From IMG/VR virus record IMGVR_UViG_2850808358_000005: DNA of 64,000 bases; one strand, 5' to 3'. The translations under genes and the position numbers were made by a program. Each line of letters begins with the position of its first letter. Positions within the stretch are counted from its first letter, which is position 1. Shown here one piece after another: positions 22,571-29,692 of this stretch. Source of the stretch: a virus (taxonomy: Duplodnaviria > Heunggongvirae > Uroviricota > Caudoviricetes). The notes under the pieces were generated by a model. It had not been told where the DNA came from. It was given only the letters and a program-made list of their open reading frames with translations, and searched no databases.

Positions 22571-22960
22571 ATGGACATGAGAAAAAAGCAATACGACACC
22601 CCGCTGGCAGAAAGGTTAGATACGATCTCGCAACAGCATCACTTAAGCGGTTCAGATTTAGCGCGTATCGCTGGTGTAGGTCGCTCATCAGTTAACGCAT
22701 GGAAAAAAAGAGGAACAATCAGTAAAGATTCCGCGGCAAAAATTGCAGAAGCTACAAACGTATCCCTTTCCTGGTTGCTGACAGGAAAAGAAGATAGCAA
22801 TAGAGAGACACTTGATGATGATGAGAAAGCCCTGCTTGATGTTTACAGAAATCTGCCACCTGTAGAACGCAGAAATATGCTTGCAGCTTTTCAAATGCGA
22901 CTTCAAAAACTGACTGAATTTTATTCAGAATACGTTGACCCAGCAACGCGTCAAAAATAA
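22571..22960 (+). CDS. cI-like prophage repressor (XRE-family HTH, RacR-like)
   Basis: HTH motif LSGSDLARIAGVGRSSVNAWKK; divergently arranged with the cro-like gene. Confidence 0.6.
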   Translation: MDMRKKQYDTPLAERLDTISQQHHLSGSDLARIAGVGRSSVNAWKKRGTISKDSAAKIAEATNVSLSWLLTGKEDSNRETLDDDEKALLDVYRNLPPVERRNMLAAFQMRLQKLTEFYSEYVDPATRQK

Positions 22961-22982: not shown

Positions 22983-23004
22983 CCGCCGAAAGGCGGTTTT
23001 TTTT
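22983..23004 (+). terminator. rho-independent terminator after the repressor gene
   Basis: CCGCCGAAAGGCGG followed by TTTTTTTT. Confidence 0.6.
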
Positions 23005-23127
23005 GCCTTTTATGAATTCATAATGTTGACATATGTTCATTTAAAGAGAACAATGTATTCCATCAAAGCACAACGGTGCGACAGGTTTTAGTTCCGCCAC
23101 CCGGCGTTAAGGGGAAATGAGGTCAGC

Positions 23128-23283
23128 ATGGATACTATCGATCTTGGCAACAACGAATCCCTGGTGTGTGGCGTGTTTCCCAACCAGGACGGCACGTTCA
23201 CCGCGATGACGTATACCAAAAGCAAAACGTTTAAAACCGAATCTGGCGCGCGTCGCTGGCTGGAAAGAAACTCAGGTGAGTAA
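23128..23283 (+). CDS. YdaF-like small protein (DUF1391)
   Basis: 51-aa ORF MDTIDLGNNESLVCGVFPNQDGTFTAMTYTKSK...; good RBS (AAGGGGAAATGAGG); below the ORF-track size cutoff. Confidence 0.5.
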   Translation: MDTIDLGNNESLVCGVFPNQDGTFTAMTYTKSKTFKTESGARRWLERNSGE

Positions 23284-23284
23284 T

Positions 23285-23413
23285 ATGGATTTCGACACAA
23301 TCATGAAAAAGGCTTACGAAGAATACTTCGAAGGCCTTGCCGAAGGCGAAGAAGCTCTCAGCTTCAGTGAGTTTAAACAGGCGCTTTCCAGTTCGGCAAA
23401 ATCTAACGGCTGA
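23285..23413 (+). CDS. YdaG-like small protein
   Basis: 42-aa ORF MDFDTIMKKAYEEYFEGLAEGEEALSFSEFKQ...; starts 2 nt after the previous stop. Confidence 0.35.
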   Translation: MDFDTIMKKAYEEYFEGLAEGEEALSFSEFKQALSSSAKSNG

Positions 23414-23442
23414 TAAGCGAAACAGCACCGCGAGGAATCGGT

Positions 23443-23661
23443 ATGCAGAAACGTGACCCCGTCATCATCGCGCCAGACTATACCGATGATGAACTTTATG
23501 AGTGGATGCACCAGAAAATTCAGGCTGCGCAGGACCTGAAGTGGGCCAATGAAGCCCGGGCTAAGGAGGCCGAAAATCTGTCCGCTCAGGAGCAGGATAT
23601 CACCAGGCTGGAAAAAGCAGCGGCATTAAGCATTGCCAGAATGATTACATACCAGCGTTAA
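23443..23661 (+). CDS. hypothetical small protein
   Basis: 72-aa ORF with coiled-coil-like C-terminus. Confidence 0.3.
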   Translation: MQKRDPVIIAPDYTDDELYEWMHQKIQAAQDLKWANEARAKEAENLSAQEQDITRLEKAAALSIARMITYQR

Positions 23662-23779
23662 TGGCTAACCAACGAAGCCAAGGTTGGTAATTAAGGAGTT
23701 CTCCACGGGTGAGGTGGAGTGCGTGCGCCGGACACGGGTGAGTATCCGGCATGTTCTTTAAAAATCTGAATACCTTGAC

Positions 23780-24250
23780 TCAAAAATCATTATTGAAATT
23801 GTAGTCCATGAGATACTCATTTTTACAGGAGGGACATTGAGTTTTCGTATATTTATCGCCTTCCTCGATAGGGAAAGGTTGCAATATAGATATTGCTCTC
23901 TTCGCAAAACATTCTGGACAAAAATACATGGTAATCTTGCCAGAGCTAGTATTGCACTGTCTGGCATACACAATCGTTCCAGTAATCAATTGGCGAGGTT
24001 CGCAGTCTTCACTTTGGAACTTAAACTTTTCTATCTCCGTGAGTTTTGCTTTGAGCGCAGCCTCATTGCTTTTAGAGATTGTCAGCTCATCAATGAGAGA
24101 CAAATATTCAAGCTGAATGCTTGACAACTTAGAGTTTATTTCAGACACAGCGCGATCAACCTCAGCCTGAGTTTTTGCTTCATTGAATAATTTTAACATT
24201 GATGCAGTCTCTTTGAGAGCTGACATCGCTAATGATAGATCAAACATCAC
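23780..24250 (-). CDS. hypothetical coiled-coil protein with C-terminal zinc-ribbon (CPEC...CPSC)
   Basis: 156-aa ORF in an AT-rich block on the strand opposite the early-left operon. Confidence 0.4.
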   Translation of the reverse strand: MMFDLSLAMSALKETASMLKLFNEAKTQAEVDRAVSEINSKLSSIQLEYLSLIDELTISKSNEAALKAKLTEIEKFKFQSEDCEPRQLITGTIVYARQCNTSSGKITMYFCPECFAKRAISILQPFPIEEGDKYTKTQCPSCKNEYLMDYNFNNDF

Positions 24251-25011
24251 TTGCTCACTCTTCTTATTGTTGGGGTATTCAGATTATACAAATTTCTTGT
24301 TGTTGGGGAATAACAGGAACCACCTCGCCTGACGTGGTTAAAAGCAGGCACACAACACGAAAGCGCACGGCGAGGTAGCTGGTCATAGATAGCCTGTCGT
24401 TAAATTTTCGCCGACCGTGCGCTTCCGGTTGTGGCAATCCGCGAAATGGCGCGGCGGTAAGTATGGCGGGGTTTCTCCGTTCCTCGCAAATGTCCACCGG
24501 GTTGTCAGGTTGACCATACGATTAAGTGACAACCCGCCACAACATCTCCAGATTGAGTTGTTGGCGATGAAACTTTTGGCGGCATCAGTTTTGCTCTGCC
24601 GCCCTTTTTAAAGTGAATTTTGTGATGCGGTGAATGCGGCTGAGCGCACGCGGAACAGTTAAAACAGTAAGGAAAATCCCTTATTCCGGCGTTAATTGTT
24701 AACTGGTTAACGTCACCTGGAGGCACCAGGCACCGCATCAACAAAATTTATTTAATTAATTATGCGCGAATTAACCGTTATTCGTGCAGGGGATTTCCAC
24801 ACCTGAAATCCGCCGCTCTTTAACAATATGAACCGGGCTGTCACGTAAACCACAATTCGGGGTGCCGCCGAATGCCCTGATATATCCGCAGAACCGGAAC
24901 GCAGGGTCGGGATGTGACTTTTTGAACAAACCAAACTGGCGGCTTCCGCCACTTGCGAGAAAACTAAATTCAGACTAAATTATAACTCCCAATGAAAAAA
25001 GGAACACCCAT

Positions 25012-25245
25012 ATGAAAATAGAAACTATCAGCTACATCAAGAAAAACGCAGCCTCACTGGACCTGGCGGAACCCATTCTTGTCACGCAGAATGGTGTTCC
25101 TGCATACGTAATTGAATCCTATGAGCAGCAACAGGAACGCGAGAACGCTATTGCGTTACTGAAACTTCTCACTATTTCAGAAAACGACAAGTCTGAAGGT
25201 CGCGTGTTTTCAAAAGCACAGTTGCTGGATAGCTTTAACAACTAA
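25012..25245 (+). CDS. Phd/YefM-family antitoxin (putative)
   Basis: 77-aa protein with the family N-terminal pattern (ISYIKKNAASLDLAEPILVTQNGVPAYVIESYE); 8-nt gap to the toxin gene. Confidence 0.55.
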   Translation: MKIETISYIKKNAASLDLAEPILVTQNGVPAYVIESYEQQQERENAIALLKLLTISENDKSEGRVFSKAQLLDSFNN

Positions 25246-25253
25246 GGTTAACT

Positions 25254-25574
25254 ATGCAGGTTGAATACACACTTACCGCCAGAACAAGCCTTGAGCAAAT
25301 TGCCGACCATCTCCGGAGTAACGACATTGACCCACGCCCTGTAATAGCAGAAATTCTTGAGCGATTTGAAACAAGAGTTACTGCATTCCCGTCCGGATGT
25401 CAGTTATGCCCGGAGTTGCTCAAGCTTGGCGTGGCTAAATACAGAGAGTGCAACACACCAGAAGGCTACAGAGTGCTGTACTCTGTCGAGGAGGATATTA
25501 TCACTGCACACGTGATTCTTTCCCAACGTCAGGATATTAAACAGTTACTGTTCAGACGATTGATCAGAGTTTAG
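25254..25574 (+). CDS. RelE/ParE-family toxin (putative)
   Basis: 106-aa protein with C-terminal EGYRVLYSVEEDIITAHVILSQRQD typical of the RelE/ParE fold; terminator follows. Confidence 0.5.
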   Translation: MQVEYTLTARTSLEQIADHLRSNDIDPRPVIAEILERFETRVTAFPSGCQLCPELLKLGVAKYRECNTPEGYRVLYSVEEDIITAHVILSQRQDIKQLLFRRLIRV

Positions 25575-25594
25575 CAATTACACATTTAGTAGCG

Positions 25595-25624
25595 CCCCTG
25601 TCCCCACCAGTTCAGGGGTTTTTG
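25595..25624 (+). terminator. rho-independent terminator after the toxin-antitoxin pair
   Basis: CCCCTG...CAGGGG stem followed by a T-run. Confidence 0.5.
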
Positions 25625-25893
25625 CTTTCTGATATCCGGGATATTGACAAAGCAACCTGCATTGTTGCAAGATGATCGCACTAGAAACAGTTAAGCGGTC
25701 ATCCGCACCCGATAGCCTTGCGGCTTTTTTATGCCTGAAATACGGCACATCCGTACAAAGATCGGGTGGAGAGGCGTAATACAATACCCGTAAGGGGAAT
25801 ATGCCCGGAGCTTCTTAACTGGCTCTAGTTGACACCCGATCACCAGCTACTAACTGGTAATCGCAGACTAAAACAGTTAAGGAGGCCACTAAA

Positions 25894-26448
25894 ATGGCTA
25901 CTATCCCTGCCCTTTCTCACCCTGACGTAACCATCGAAAATGGTCGCGCTGTCACTACGTCTGTTGCTATTGCGGAGTTCTTCGGCAAACGCCACGAACG
26001 TGTGCTGGATAAAATTCGCAATTTAGACTGCTCATCAAATTTTAACGAACACAATTTTGTGTCGGTCACCTACACCGACACCAAAGGCGAAAAACGCCCA
26101 ATGTACCAAATCACCAAAAACGGCTTCGTTTTCCTGGTGATGGGCTTCACTGGCAAAAAAGCCGCCGCATTCAAAGAAGCCTACATTGCTGAGTTCGACC
26201 GCATGGAGGCCGAACTGCGCCAGAATAATACCCTGCCCGCTGACAAAATTATCCCGGGAGATGGCCGTACTCTCGTTGTTCACTTCGACGAACACGGCAA
26301 CATCAGATTCACCGAAACCGTTCCTGACGGTGCAATGGTCTGTACCCTGGATACTTTCCAGTTTTATCTGGAAAAACAGGGGTGGGCTCTTGTAAACCGG
26401 AGCGCAATTAAAAACATGACCGTAGAGCAGTTGCTTTCCTTAAAATAA
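25894..26448 (+). CDS. Rha-family phage regulatory protein
   Basis: N-terminal Rha-like domain (HPDVTIENGRAVTTSVAIAEFFGKRHERVLDKIRNL). Confidence 0.6.
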   Translation: MATIPALSHPDVTIENGRAVTTSVAIAEFFGKRHERVLDKIRNLDCSSNFNEHNFVSVTYTDTKGEKRPMYQITKNGFVFLVMGFTGKKAAAFKEAYIAEFDRMEAELRQNNTLPADKIIPGDGRTLVVHFDEHGNIRFTETVPDGAMVCTLDTFQFYLEKQGWALVNRSAIKNMTVEQLLSLK

Positions 26449-26458
26449 AAATGGAGCT

Positions 26459-26746
26459 ATGGATATGAACCCCATGCTTGATTATTGTTTTACACCTGCC
26501 CTCAGGCAGACCATCAGTCATACCGGGATTAAAAAATGGCTGTGGAGAATCAGAAAAATTCTCCAGCAAAAAGGTGACCCGGATTTAATACAATGTGATT
26601 ACCATCTCTGCAATAAACAGTTTTTACCTGAAAAAGCTTTTACTGGCGAGCTTATTTATATGCATGGAAACATGATTGCCAGAAAGAAACGAAAATATTG
26701 CAGTGCAGCTTGTGCCGAAAAAGACAAGATGGCACACGAACTTTAA
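26459..26746 (+). CDS. hypothetical Cys/His-rich small protein
   Basis: 95 aa; CDYHLCNK and YCSAAC motifs; AT-rich. Confidence 0.3.
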   Translation: MDMNPMLDYCFTPALRQTISHTGIKKWLWRIRKILQQKGDPDLIQCDYHLCNKQFLPEKAFTGELIYMHGNMIARKKRKYCSAACAEKDKMAHEL

Positions 26747-26772
26747 TTAACTGAATATTCGAAACTGAATTT

Positions 26773-27117
26773 ATGCCAGCAATGGCAGGGATTCACTCAA
26801 CCTTAAAAAAGGAAACAGCAATGAGCATTATTGAATGTGAAATTGAACTTGATGTTATTAACGATTCTCTCGCCGAATTTAAATGTGGGAATACATTACA
26901 TAGTTTCATTCAGATTTCCCAAAAAGAAAACGTCACGGTAATTATTGATGACGGTTACGTTCTGGGAACATTTGATTGTTGTGTATGTGCCATTAAAGAA
27001 ATTGCATTACTCACAGCTCGCATTGAAGAGGCTGACAAGAAATACGGTATCAGTTATCAACGACTGAAAGAACTCTCTCATATCGCATCATCAGTTCGTT
27101 TCTTTTATGCAATCTGA
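26773..27117 (+). CDS. hypothetical protein
   Basis: 114 aa; contains FDCCVC; AT-rich; start may be the internal Met MSIIECE. Confidence 0.3.
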   Translation: MPAMAGIHSTLKKETAMSIIECEIELDVINDSLAEFKCGNTLHSFIQISQKENVTVIIDDGYVLGTFDCCVCAIKEIALLTARIEEADKKYGISYQRLKELSHIASSVRFFYAI

Positions 27118-27140
27118 ATATGAGTTGAGGTTAAAAAACA

Positions 27141-29009
27141 ATGAGCACCGATAAACAAGTTTACCCACTGTATTACGAAGCAAAAAATGACAAAGTAAGA
27201 AAACGCCTCGGTATTAAAGGCGGTTTTTACTGGGCTGAAGCGAAAAAATTATCCATTGCCATCTCCCGTGGTGCTGTTGCGATTGACGATGCTGGCTACG
27301 ATGAAGATGACTTTAAAAAACCTGTTCGCGTCAATTTGCCCGTTGTTGATGACCTCCCACCAGAAGGCGTGTTTGATACGGAATTCTGCAACCGTTACGA
27401 AAAAGGCGGGGAAGATGGCATCACAATGGTATTTATCGCATCTTCTCCCTCTGTTCAGGACAAACCAGCCAGCACTGACAATACCAACGTCAACGGCGAA
27501 GACATGACAGAAATTGAGGAGAACATGCTCCTGCCAGTTTCCGGTCAGGAACTGCCCATTCGTTGGCTTGCGCAACACGGCAGCGAAAAACCGGTAACGC
27601 ACGTTTCACGCGACGAACTCCAGGCATTACACATTGCTCGGGATGAAGAACTACCGGCTGTTACTGCTCTGGCTGTTTCGCATAAAACCAGTCTGCTCGA
27701 CCCGCTGGAGATTCGCGACCTCCACAAACTCGTGCGTGATACTGACAAAGTTTTCCCTAATCCTGGCAATTCAAATCTGGGACTGATGACTGCTTTTTTC
27801 GAAGCATATCTGGATGCCAACTACACCGATCGCGGTCTGCTGACAAAAGAGTGGATGAAAGGAAATCGTGTTTCGCGTATCACTCGCACGGCTTCCGGTG
27901 CTAATGCTGGCGGCGGGAACCTCACCGATCGCGGCGAAGGTTTCGTTCACGATCTGACGTCACTGGCGCGCGACGTAGCCACTGGCGTACTGGCTCGTTC
28001 AATGGACGTGGACATTTATAACCTTCATCCGGCACACGCTAAACGTGTCGAGGAAATTATCGCTGAAAATAAACCGCCCTTTTCTGTTTTCCGCGACAAA
28101 TTCATCACCATGCCTGGCGGGATGGATTATTCCCGCGCCATCGTGGTTGCGTCAGTGAAAGAAGCACCGATTGGTATCGAGGTCATCCCCGCGCACGTCA
28201 CTGAATATCTGAACAAGGTACTGACTGAAACCGATCATGCCAACCCTGATCCGGAAATCGTGGATATTGCCTGCGGTCGCTCCTCTGCCCCGATGCCGCA
28301 ACGTGTAACAGAAGAAGGAAAACAGGATGCAACTGAACATCATCAGGACACGCAGCCGCTGGATGCTCAGTCACAGGTAAATGCTGTTGATGCGAAATAT
28401 CAGAAACTGCGGACAGAACTCCATGAAGCCCGGAAAAACATTCCGCCCAAAAATCCTGTCGATGCAGACAAATTACTGGCTGCCTCTCGCGGAGAATTTG
28501 TTGAAGGGATTAGCGACCCGAATGATTCGAAATGGATTCCCGGTCATCATATCTCCTCAAATGAAGTCAAAAAAACGGAAAATGAAGTGCGACAGACTGA
28601 AGATAAACAGCACCAGAACAGCGAACCGGAGGAGGGAACACCCTGCAATCTGACTGGCGAGGATAACTGCCCTGACTGTGGCGCGGTGATGGGAGACGCA
28701 ACTTATCAGGAAACTTTTGACGAAAAAAAACCAGATGAAGCACAGGAAGAAGAGCCGAAGAAAACGGAAAAAGCTGATGATTTGTTACCGGAGAACGCTG
28801 GCAGCGATCAGCATAATGATAGCAATAATGAAACTGGCGAAGATGAACTCAACTGGAAAAGACAGGTGTTGATTGCGGCGGTTTACGGTTTATGTGCGAA
28901 TCCTGCGTGCATAGCCTATGCGCCTGCAATCCCTGACATCGCAATGATGATTGCCAACAAGCTTGAAAATTTTGGAGTGACCAGTGATGAGCGCTTACCC
29001 GATTTTTGA
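27141..29009 (+). CDS. RecE-like protein (resembles the N-terminal region of exodeoxyribonuclease VIII; C-terminal nuclease domain not evident)
   Basis: 622 aa; Rac-like context; acidic low-complexity tail with a [10 protein letters not shown] motif; family call from memory. Confidence 0.4.
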
Positions 29010-29283
29010 TCGTATTGAAGAAATGGCATGGGCTCGTCACTACCAGCAGATCGTTCGTGAAGAAAAAGAAACGGAACTGGCGGACGACCTGGAAAAAGGT
29101 CTGCCTCAGCACCTGTTTGAATCGCTCTGCATCGACCATTTGCAACGCCACGGTGCCAATAAACAGGCAATCAGCCACGCATTTGATGATGATGTTGAGT
29201 TTCAGGAGCGCATGGCAGAACACATCCGGTACATGGCTGAAACCATTGCCCACCACCAGGTTGATATTGATTTGGAGGACTAA
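28984..29283 (+). CDS. hypothetical protein
   Basis: 99-aa ORF overlapping the RecE-like stop. Confidence 0.3.
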
Positions 29284-29692
29284 AATCTATGGCGCTTTTT
29301 CAACGAGCAATAAACACACAGGCCTATCTAAAAGCAGGAATTATGGGGTTTGCTGGCGACGGCAAAACCTACACAGCAAGCGAACTGGCTATTGGTCTGG
29401 TAATGCTTATGCGGCAACGGGGAATTGAAGCTGGTAACCGCCCGGTAATGTTTCTGGACACAGAAACAGGCTCTGACTGGGTTAAACCCCGCTTTGATGC
29501 GGAAAATATCGAATTATTTACGGCAAAAACCCGCTCGTTTGTTGATCTGCTTGAAGCCATTAATGAAGCGGAAAGCAGCGGTTCCGTAATGATCATCGAC
29601 TCCATCAGTCACTTCTGGACCGGATTATGCGACGAGTATGCCAGACGCCGAAACCGTAAACGAGGACTGGAATTTTCAGACTGGGCGTGGCT

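Follow-up and report, generated by a model that had tools for sequence, protein, structure and literature searches.

In Escherichia coli K-12, the dicBF operon of the Qin prophage is transcribed from the DicA-repressed promoter dicBp as a polycistronic transcript, from which a 190-nt form of the small RNA DicF is cut in an RNase III-dependent manner and a 53-nt form in an RNase E-dependent manner (PMC10448788). A terminated transcript of 1,146 nt was the major species, and no internal promoter was found (PMC10448788). A 72-nt form is made by an RNase III cut downstream of the terminator, and mutations in the 3′ part of DicF, which base-pairs with the ftsZ ribosome-binding site, abolish regulation (PMC5069750). 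Here, we describe a non-coding stretch at positions 24260–25010 of a 64,000-nt DNA segment of a tailed phage (IMG/VR record IMGVR_UViG_2850808358_000005; hereafter the window, meaning the whole segment analysed), the parts of which were mapped over 24251–25015. Based on identity and architecture, the stretch very probably represents the untranslated dicF segment of the early-left (dicBF-type) operon of a Qin/Rac-type lambdoid prophage. Homology and synteny with the K-12 locus, conserved helices with covariation, the loss of the ftsZ-pairing bases of DicF and a boxA match were observed directly. This kind of element, a dicF locus with RNase III and RNase E processing, is already known, and the copy found here is a variant of it.

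The window was 100% identical to E. coli strain VL40, in which the neighbourhood is annotated as the immunity and early-left region of a lambdoid prophage (Table 1). Alignment of 23662–25015 with the ydfC–dicB interval of K-12 Qin showed near-identity (~90%) over 24340–24755, and the order of genes was that of the K-12 Qin ydfC–dicF–dicB untranslated region, placing the stretch, as expected for DicF, downstream of ydfABC, in the untranslated part of an early-left prophage operon of the dicBF type. The region was matched in 4719 of 5426 complete E. coli genomes. A PL/dicBp-like sigma-70 promoter, located after the dicA-like repressor gene and a terminator just as K-12 dicBp lies between dicA and ydfA, is the presumed start of an early-left transcript running through 24260–25010. 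Shared with K-12 Qin were the operon position, an upstream long stem, a 121-nt pseudoknotted module, the terminator stem GGCGG/CCGCC with its U-run and a downstream element closed by a long helix. The window differed in an 11-nt deletion in the DicF loop, in the sequences of the 5′ arm, the linker and one hairpin of the module (P2), in a reverse-strand open reading frame (ORF) inserted upstream, and in the replacement of dicB/ydfD by a boxA leader followed by phd/parE. A preliminary description of the stretch, made from its letters alone, had proposed that it encodes one or more phage small RNAs (sRNAs) or a processed end of the early-left transcript; this reading is supported by the K-12 homolog, which is a processed part of the dicBp transcript (PMC10448788).

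The same description had reported no convincing ORF, and indeed Pfam returned no match for any of the four mechanical ORFs of the stretch (64, 79, 72 and 66 aa). Although such ORFs of 64–79 aa occur on both strands, a decayed protein-coding remnant is an extremely improbable explanation. Besides the lack of Pfam matches, the alignment with K-12 contained indels that were not multiples of three (the lengths were 1, 2, 5, 11 and 12 nt), which a conserved reading frame would not tolerate; RNA helices were preserved by substitutions; and the K-12 homolog is experimentally untranslated (PMC10448788, PMC5069750). The label GC-rich was wrong for the stretch as a whole (GC content of 0.481, vs. 0.488 for the window), enrichment being confined to 24315–24612, at 0.53. 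The claim of structure was borne out by folding against shuffled sequences, with z-scores of −5.36 for 24560–24790 and −2.59 for 24300–24612; the fold of 24760–25015 was weak and marginal (z = −1.78). Both the hairpin GGCGGCA...TGCCGCC with TTTTT at 24578–24609 and the hairpin GGATTTC...GAAATCC at 24791–24811 were present where they had been described. The reported 10-bp inverted repeat (TGATGCGGTG at 24623–32 and CACCGCATCA at 24731–40) was found too, as the inner part of a 21-bp helix. No tRNA or tmRNA was detected in 23500–25500 with ARAGORN or Rfam, and no Rfam family matched 24260–25010 at the gathering threshold. In E-value mode, a mir-11 match was dismissed as chance, and the only other matches were sub-threshold ones to DicF and STnc100.

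The covariance-model search, which had been suggested as a check, showed that the resemblance to DicF reflects real homology. The Rfam DicF model (RF00039) aligned to the terminator hairpin at 24568–24604 with a score of 27.9 bits at an E-value of 0.0018, short of the gathering score of 48 bits, at a locus that is syntenic and ~90% identical to K-12; with the same model, K-12 DicF scored 76.7 bits and the variant L003 37.9 bits. The shortened loop and different 5′ part noted earlier were visible in this alignment. As in the Rho-independent terminator of DicF, the terminator stem and U-tail were intact, with a predicted hairpin energy of −13.7 kcal/mol. The 11-nt loop deletion relative to K-12 DicF (ACUCCGUGACU) took out the bases CUCCG, which are complementary to ftsZ, and the 5′ arm, used for xylR pairing in canonical DicF (UUUCUGGUGACG), was replaced by GAUGAAACUUUU. 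In windowed calculations, canonical DicF formed its best local duplex with the translation-initiation region of ftsZ at −22.9 kcal/mol, with CUCCG pairing to the Shine-Dalgarno sequence CGGAG; the best duplex of the variant reached −16.7 kcal/mol and leaves the Shine-Dalgarno sequence free. This windowed analysis was used in place of whole-length RNAduplex, with which shuffled sRNAs scored equally well against the ftsZ leader. The allele was found at an identity of at least 98% in 2 of the 5426 E. coli genomes. By its sequence, the small RNA is a rare hybrid or deletion allele that has kept the terminator and U-tail and has lost the CUCCG loop and the canonical 5′ seed, and it most likely no longer inhibits cell division. 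We infer that it can still terminate transcription and still be released, and that it no longer targets ftsZ. In the linker and 5′ arm preceding it (24544–24577), the sequence of which is unrelated to the canonical DicF 5′ arm, RNase E would be expected to cut, judging from K-12 (PMC10448788).

Both long helices flanking the DicF-like RNA were conserved, and in 139 of 139 true module loci a GC hairpin with a T-run followed 41–115 nt downstream. The occupant of this slot was highly variable: canonical DicF dominated, and at least 11 other types of hairpin and 5′ arm were seen. Phage P1 carries an unrelated terminator hairpin in the slot. In phage vB_Apl-pPE4 (L151, 2596–2770), the DicF-like RNA and its linker are duplicated in tandem as two identical units of ~95 nt, which precede the downstream element and kil. 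In E. coli A34 (L002, 4240–4317), and only in this strain, a tRNA-like gene lies exactly in the slot, between module and downstream element; it is annotated as ‘tRNA-OTHER’ by PGAP, scored 44.2 bits with the Rfam tRNA model and was missed by ARAGORN. It is possible that the hairpin in the window is a decayed dicF allele and nothing else, which terminates transcription without giving rise to a functional trans-acting RNA and is surrounded by structures that are inherited baggage; we regard this as less probable, though as the most serious of the alternatives. The deletion of the experimentally defined ftsZ-pairing part, the 5′ arm unlike the canonical seed and the rarity of the allele all point in that direction, as does its composition, with a 5′ half like one slot type and a 3′ half like another, as in a recombinant or deletion product. 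The stem, the U-tail and both flanking processing helices are nevertheless intact, and the at least 12 hairpin types in the same slot of other phages suggest that functional small-RNA turnover, rather than decay, is normal there.

Some further observations concern these slots. The tRNA-like gene of strain A34 has an anticodon loop that looks oversized by eye, and its 5′ acceptor strand could pair with a remnant of the 3′ strand of the DicF terminator. Although labelled as an Actinobacillus phage, vB_Apl-pPE4 has DicA, YdaT, Kil and RecE genes of the E. coli type. A single-stranded motif, UUGCUGUGUGUAGU(C)UU, is shared by several phages ahead of different terminator hairpins, in the slots of L150 and L054 and at L163 (~2228–2262) and L164 (~2050–2095), and might represent the seed of a further family of early-left sRNAs.

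Downstream of the DicF-like RNA, the 21-bp helix encloses four hairpins within a 143-nt element that is, judging by its sequence, a homolog of the K-12 dicF–dicB spacer. RNAalifold on 16 variants predicted 45 pairs, four of them with compensatory change, and a variable central hairpin. The 3′ end of 72-nt DicF falls inside the 5′ strand of the 21-bp helix, which would make this helix the downstream RNase III site. The early-left leader of phage lambda likewise contains a long RNase III-sensitive helix right before its first protein gene, N. At most dicF loci, ~20 nt separate the end of the 21-bp helix from the start codon of the first gene (dicB, kil or another), whereas in the window the helix is followed by a further 260-nt leader.

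The element was also matched by the Rfam STnc100 model (RF02076), with 38.9 bits at 24606–24775, below the gathering score of 47; the homologous copies at dicF loci scored 33–39 bits (K-12, 34.4 bits), all below 47. A core GGUGAAU...CACCNGGAGGCACCNGGCACC and an enclosing long stem are common to both. STnc100/PasD are bona fide prophage sRNAs encoded near late/tail genes and Fels-1 chaperone genes (bioRxiv 10.64898/2026.05.13.724894), whereas the dicF-locus copies, including that of the window, are part of the early-left leader and do not end in their own terminator. A compact early-left leader in Cronobacter phage phiES15 (L163, 2020–2270) comprises, besides a long stem and GAATGCGGCTAAGCGCACGCGG, the STnc100 core CACCGGGAGGCACCCGGCACC and a terminator of its own; it shares the flanking sequences and has neither module nor DicF. 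This unit looks like an ancestral or minimal form of the Qin-type leader, which, speculatively, may be an STnc100-like scaffold with module and sRNA inserted. In phage P1 (L004, 3842–3961), a sub-threshold STnc100-like match of 33.4 bits was seen just upstream of tciA in the ban operon, and P1 may thus possess the two elements that flank the dicF leader, with its tRNA genes in between.

These matches raise the question of whether each structured piece is a separate sRNA gene transcribed from its own promoter, such as an STnc100/PasD-type sRNA at 24606–24775, instead of belonging to one processed leader. The 38.9-bit match, the bona fide sRNA status of STnc100/PasD and the compact, self-terminated unit of phiES15 would be in line with this. 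We nonetheless consider it very unlikely, as a consensus scan revealed no promoter-like site on the plus strand inside 24300–24760, the K-12 study found no internal promoter (PMC10448788), the element of the window has no terminator of its own and abuts the next start codon in most loci, like a 5′ untranslated region, and all copies score below the Rfam gathering score.

The stem upstream of the small RNA is, by its sequence, a homolog of the K-12 upstream RNase III site that yields 190-nt DicF. Counting back 190 nt from the dicF 3′ end in K-12 (L158, 2435) placed the calculated 5′ end at 2246, 3 nt before the start of the module at 2249, so that long DicF would consist of module, linker and DicF. 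The 190-, 53- and 72-nt lengths of the K-12 products map onto the two conserved helices, which supports a K-12-like processed leader in the window.

The structure of the 121-nt module was derived from an alignment of 28 divergent copies. Within it, a helix of nine pairs (PK) joins GGU..GUAUGG to the loop of hairpin P3 (CCAUACGCU), forming an H-type pseudoknot. When P0, P2 and P3 were combined in a covariance model, with PK left out, a single copy was found in the window (125 bits) and one in each of 78 loci; the K-12 copy scored 145 bits. On 76 distinct sequences, 96% of cells were paired, vs. 30–56% with slid 3′ partners, seven pairs showed compensatory changes, and the observed covariation score was reached by 0 of 500 shuffles. 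PK, although outside the model, was 99% paired and included a UA-to-CG switch in phage P1. The single-stranded segments were highly conserved in the 28-copy alignment, though the invariance of the loops is partly due to ascertainment, since most of the 76 sequences were gathered with an exact 18-base pattern. The module had no match in Rfam. An alternative hairpin, CCACAAC/GUUGUUGG, was specific to the window and not present in K-12.

Outside Qin-type loci, the module was found 230–290 nt downstream of PL in phages cdtI and pPE4, in Salmonella phage F1055, and ~35 nt downstream of the C1-controlled Pban in phages P1 and P7, where it bears the GenBank label ‘dicF-like region’. The P1/P7 copies scored 89–100 bits, showed compensatory changes in P3 and PK and are likewise followed by an intrinsic terminator. 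The ban leader differs in being without the upstream RNase III stem and P0, and its terminator (GCCCATC/GGTGGGC) is unrelated to DicF and is followed by tRNA genes, tciABC and ban. When species-representative genomes were scanned for the exact core pattern, real matches were confined to Escherichia/Shigella and to contigs in non-enterobacterial metagenome-assembled genomes that seem to stem from E. coli; other matches, in unrelated bacteria, were due to chance. This result indicates that the host range of the module is under-sampled.

Several candidate functions of the module were compared with known systems. The putL and putR RNAs of phage HK022 are likewise cis-encoded structured RNAs near the start of early operons of N-less lambdoid phages, upstream of terminators. 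A put RNA is about 70 nt long, with two stems and a short triplex (PMC9378689), whereas the module is 121 nt long, folds as an H-type pseudoknot and occurs once per phage. Homology with put was rejected, as the model found nothing at E ≤ 0.001 in HK022 nt 23000–36000, an interval that holds putL and should hold putR. An ops/RfaH site was considered due to the resemblance of GGCGGTAAGTATG in the module to GGCGGTAGnnTG and was rejected on the basis of the ops consensus (A at position 8; T6 to C in P1 variants). A riboswitch-style switch was rejected as well, because no module pairing to the 5′ strand of the terminator was kept between DicF-type and P1-type terminators.

That the module is a cis-acting RNA modifying polymerase or terminator efficiency, through put-like antitermination or attenuation, and not a mere processing scaffold, appeared unlikely. 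It is located near the start of early operons with no N gene between promoter and module, and its position in P1/P7 as well as in cdtI and pPE4 is suggestive. It is always succeeded by an intrinsic terminator ahead of genes that need expression, and its single-stranded segments are highly conserved. However, the covariance model detected no HK022 put match, putL having only the 9-mer GCGCGGCGG in common, and neither the rightward operon nor the second prophage of the window contained another copy. No conserved pairing of the module with the terminator, from which an anti-terminator could arise, was found, termination predominates in K-12, with the 1,146-nt transcript as the major species (PMC10448788), and the module of the window lies 1.36 kb from the promoter. 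Also improbable is the broader proposal that the module belongs to an undescribed class of cis-acting phage RNA domain, common to N-less lambdoid prophages and the P1/P7 ban operon and placed ahead of an exchangeable terminator-hairpin cassette. Such a domain might set the read-through into the early genes, or might be a launch pad that matures or stabilises the small RNA plugged in behind it.

dicB was absent from the window, and the last ~250–260 nt of the stretch consisted of a boxA leader and a toxin-antitoxin promoter. The transcribed strand carries GCTCTTTAACA(A) at 24815–24826, in agreement with the gamma-proteobacterial boxA consensus GYTCTTTAANA (PMC5725501). The motif corresponds to 12 of the 13 bases of the rrnB boxA, which in the rrnB leader (TGCTCTTTAACAA) also follows a hairpin, at a distance of 2 nt compared to 3 nt here. 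A boxA with a hairpin upstream recalls the rrn boxB-boxA-boxC leader; other boxA sites are those of suhB and of CRISPR leaders. In contrast to the rrn leader, the boxA of the window is part of a prophage early-left leader in front of a toxin-antitoxin pair, and no boxC-like GU-rich element was recognised. Copies of boxA plus leader with ~79% identity were detected in roughly 180 genomes of E. coli (182 records fell into the 60–80% identity band). At the one locus examined (L160, 2501–2603), the copy is part of an integrative element, follows an Hha-family gene and lies upstream of a small ORF and a VirB-type/type IV secretion operon; one pair of the leader stem is compensatory (G-C to A-U). 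No Rfam family covers the boxA leader, and a limited literature search returned nothing linking boxA to Rac/Qin early operons. From its sequence, we infer that it is a Nus-factor (anti-Rho) leader.

The Pfam matches for Phd/YefM and ParE cover 25012–25574. The weak promoter in front of them is overlapped by the direct repeats ACTAAATT (24963–70 and 24974–81) and is likely an autoregulated toxin-antitoxin promoter. A second, loose match to the boxA consensus (GTTCTTTAAAA) was noted at 23753–23763 (+), 3 nt after the hairpin CCGGACACGGGTGAGTATCCGG (23729–50), where the window diverges from K-12; chance alone would produce about one match of this kind per window.

For transcription, RNase cleavage, terminator use and Nus recruitment at this locus, the following course of events is proposed. 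Once the DicA-like repressor is lifted, transcription would start from the PL-like promoter near 23050 and proceed through ydfA, ydfB and ydfC into the leader. As in K-12, RNase III would cut the long stem at ~24347–24435, producing a species of ~185–190 nt with the 121-nt pseudoknotted module at its 5′ end, and RNase E would cut in the linker to leave a short RNA of ~40–45 nt, with the intrinsic terminator (24578–24609) as its 3′ end. Polymerases that pass the terminator would transcribe the 143-nt multi-hairpin element, and its 21-bp closing helix would, again by comparison with K-12, be a second RNase III site that parts the small RNA from the downstream message. The altered small RNA would mainly be an attenuator/terminator and possibly an sRNA with other targets. 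The rrn-like boxB-boxA leader in the place of dicB would probably recruit host Nus factors and shield the long downstream transcript from Rho.

Several points weigh against this interpretation. Every processing step was carried over from K-12 by analogy. The convergent minus-strand ORF 23780–24250 lies between ydfC and the leader and, at 1.36 kb from the PL-like promoter, the leader may be reached by less transcription. The sub-gathering score of the DicF-like RNA and its presence in only 2 of 5426 genomes would suit an allele of recent origin that may be non-functional. The module sequences from which covariation was computed were closely related and partly collected by an exact-match pattern, so that the statistics overstate their independence, and the PK helix of the window has one mismatch (G24457/A24521). 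Finally, boxA and the ~90 nt behind it accompany the phd/parE cassette (in 4 of 147 dicF-type loci, as well as in a Rac-like locus without the module), and the boxA leader may serve this cassette rather than the operon.

Table 1. Features of the dicF-type early-left leader and its neighbourhood (positions in the 64,000-nt window).
Feature	Position	Strand	Basis or remark
Cro/YdaT-side operon		−	VL40 annotation, first in neighbourhood order
CI/DicA-like repressor	22571–22960		Pfam Phage_CI_repr match
PL/dicBp-like sigma-70 promoter, TTGACA-17-AACAAT	23026–23054	+	Consensus scan; position as K-12 dicBp
DUF1391/ydfA, ydfB, ydfC	After repressor gene, upstream of gap		VL40 annotation
Hypothetical ORF, then unannotated gap	After ydfC	−	VL40 annotation
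Probable promoter/operator of ORF 23780–24250	24251–24314	−	Sequence and ORF family
Conserved hairpin, AACCAC-CTCGCCTGAC-GTGGTT	24318–24339	+	Copies in other phages
Long stem, GGCACACAACACGAAAGCGCACGG (24347–70)/CCGTGCGCTTCCGGTTGTGGC (24415–35)	24347–24435	+	Minimum free energy fold; near-identity to K-12
Pseudoknotted leader module, 121 nt	24425–24545	+	Covariance model, 125 bits, single copy in window
Module helix P0 (closing)	24428–35/24536–43	+	
Module helix P1a (small hairpin)	24439–43/24450–54	+	
Module helix PK	24456–58 and 24461–66 with 24514–22	+	
Module helix P2 (variable hairpin)	24467–71/24482–86	+	
Module helix P3 (hairpin)	24498–24507/24527–36	+	
Linker and 5′ single-stranded arm	24544–24577	+	K-12 alignment; comparison of slot types
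DicF-like small RNA with intrinsic terminator	24568–24609	+	Stem GGCGGCA/TGCCGCC, 24578–84/24597–603, then T5
Multi-hairpin element, 143 nt	24610–24752	+	Closed by 21-bp helix 24612–32/24731–52; fold z = −5.36
Hairpin GCGCGAAT-N8-ATTCGTGC	24764–24787	+	Fold; conserved in other phd/parE-bearing loci
boxB-like hairpin, GGATTTC-N7-GAAATCC	24791–24811	+	3 nt before boxA
boxA, GCTCTTTAACAA	24815–24826	+	rrn-type; only exact 12-mer in window
boxA with ~90-nt conserved leader	24815–24917	+	Includes hairpin ATTCGG-N7-CCGAAT (24855–73)
Probable phd/parE promoter and operator, TTGCGA-17-TAAATT	24953–24986	+	By inspection; below scan threshold
Phd/YefM and ParE genes, then Rha, RecE	Downstream of gap		VL40 annotation

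At the 5′ border of the stretch, 24251–24314 probably belongs to the promoter region of ORF 23780–24250, as suggested by a TATAAT on the minus strand (24288–24283) between two direct repeats TTGTTGGGG (24267–75 and 24300–08). This minus-strand ‘moron’ ORF belongs to phrog_1244, a family of unknown function, and gave no match to defence systems. The adjoining hairpin (AACCACCTCGCCTGAYGTGGTT; further sites at L163, ~1990–2022, and L164, ~1960–2022) has copies with 92–100% identity in Cronobacter, Hafnia, Salmonella and Escherichia phages, always next to a reverse-strand ORF with a direct-repeat pair upstream. The repeats themselves differ between phages, being TTGTTGGGG in the window and ACTGTAGGGGT in phage 606R2. 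In the alignment, the ORF, its 24251–24314 segment and the hairpin at 24318–39 were all missing from K-12 Qin.

Elsewhere, the window contains two related prophage segments with duplicated RNA genes, namely four-tRNA arrays, RalA, sok, and isrK plus C4 with a1b1 targets (coordinates of the pairs: 15716–16023/53515–53822, 31700–31879/61654–61832, 18254–18429/57024–57196 and 54639–54837/57899–58100). Rfam sRNA-Xcc1 was matched above its gathering score, with 67.4 bits, at 25760–25849 (+), between the ParE toxin and Rha-family genes; at the corresponding position, strain A34 has matches to isrK and the C4 antisense RNA instead. The SraC/RyeA-SdsR/RyeB pair of the core genome is located at the right end of the window (63394–63538).

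The analysis marks an unannotated dicF-type locus with a small RNA that probably lacks anti-ftsZ activity, which bears on counts of dicF and on the prediction of prophage toxicity. The pseudoknotted domain shared with P1, the cassette-like slot and the boxA leader were absent from the accessible literature, to which access was limited, and the module and boxA leader were absent from Rfam. In K-12, the long (190-nt) form of DicF matches a pseudoknotted domain that is conserved, backed by covariation and also present in P1, and for which Rfam has no family. The slot behind this module is a hot spot at which terminator-type small RNAs, and once a tRNA, are exchanged, offering a natural system for the study of prophage sRNA turnover. 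The occurrence of an rrn-type boxA leader in a prophage early operon, together with a second site in ~180 genomes, hints that mobile elements borrow host Nus antitermination without an N protein.

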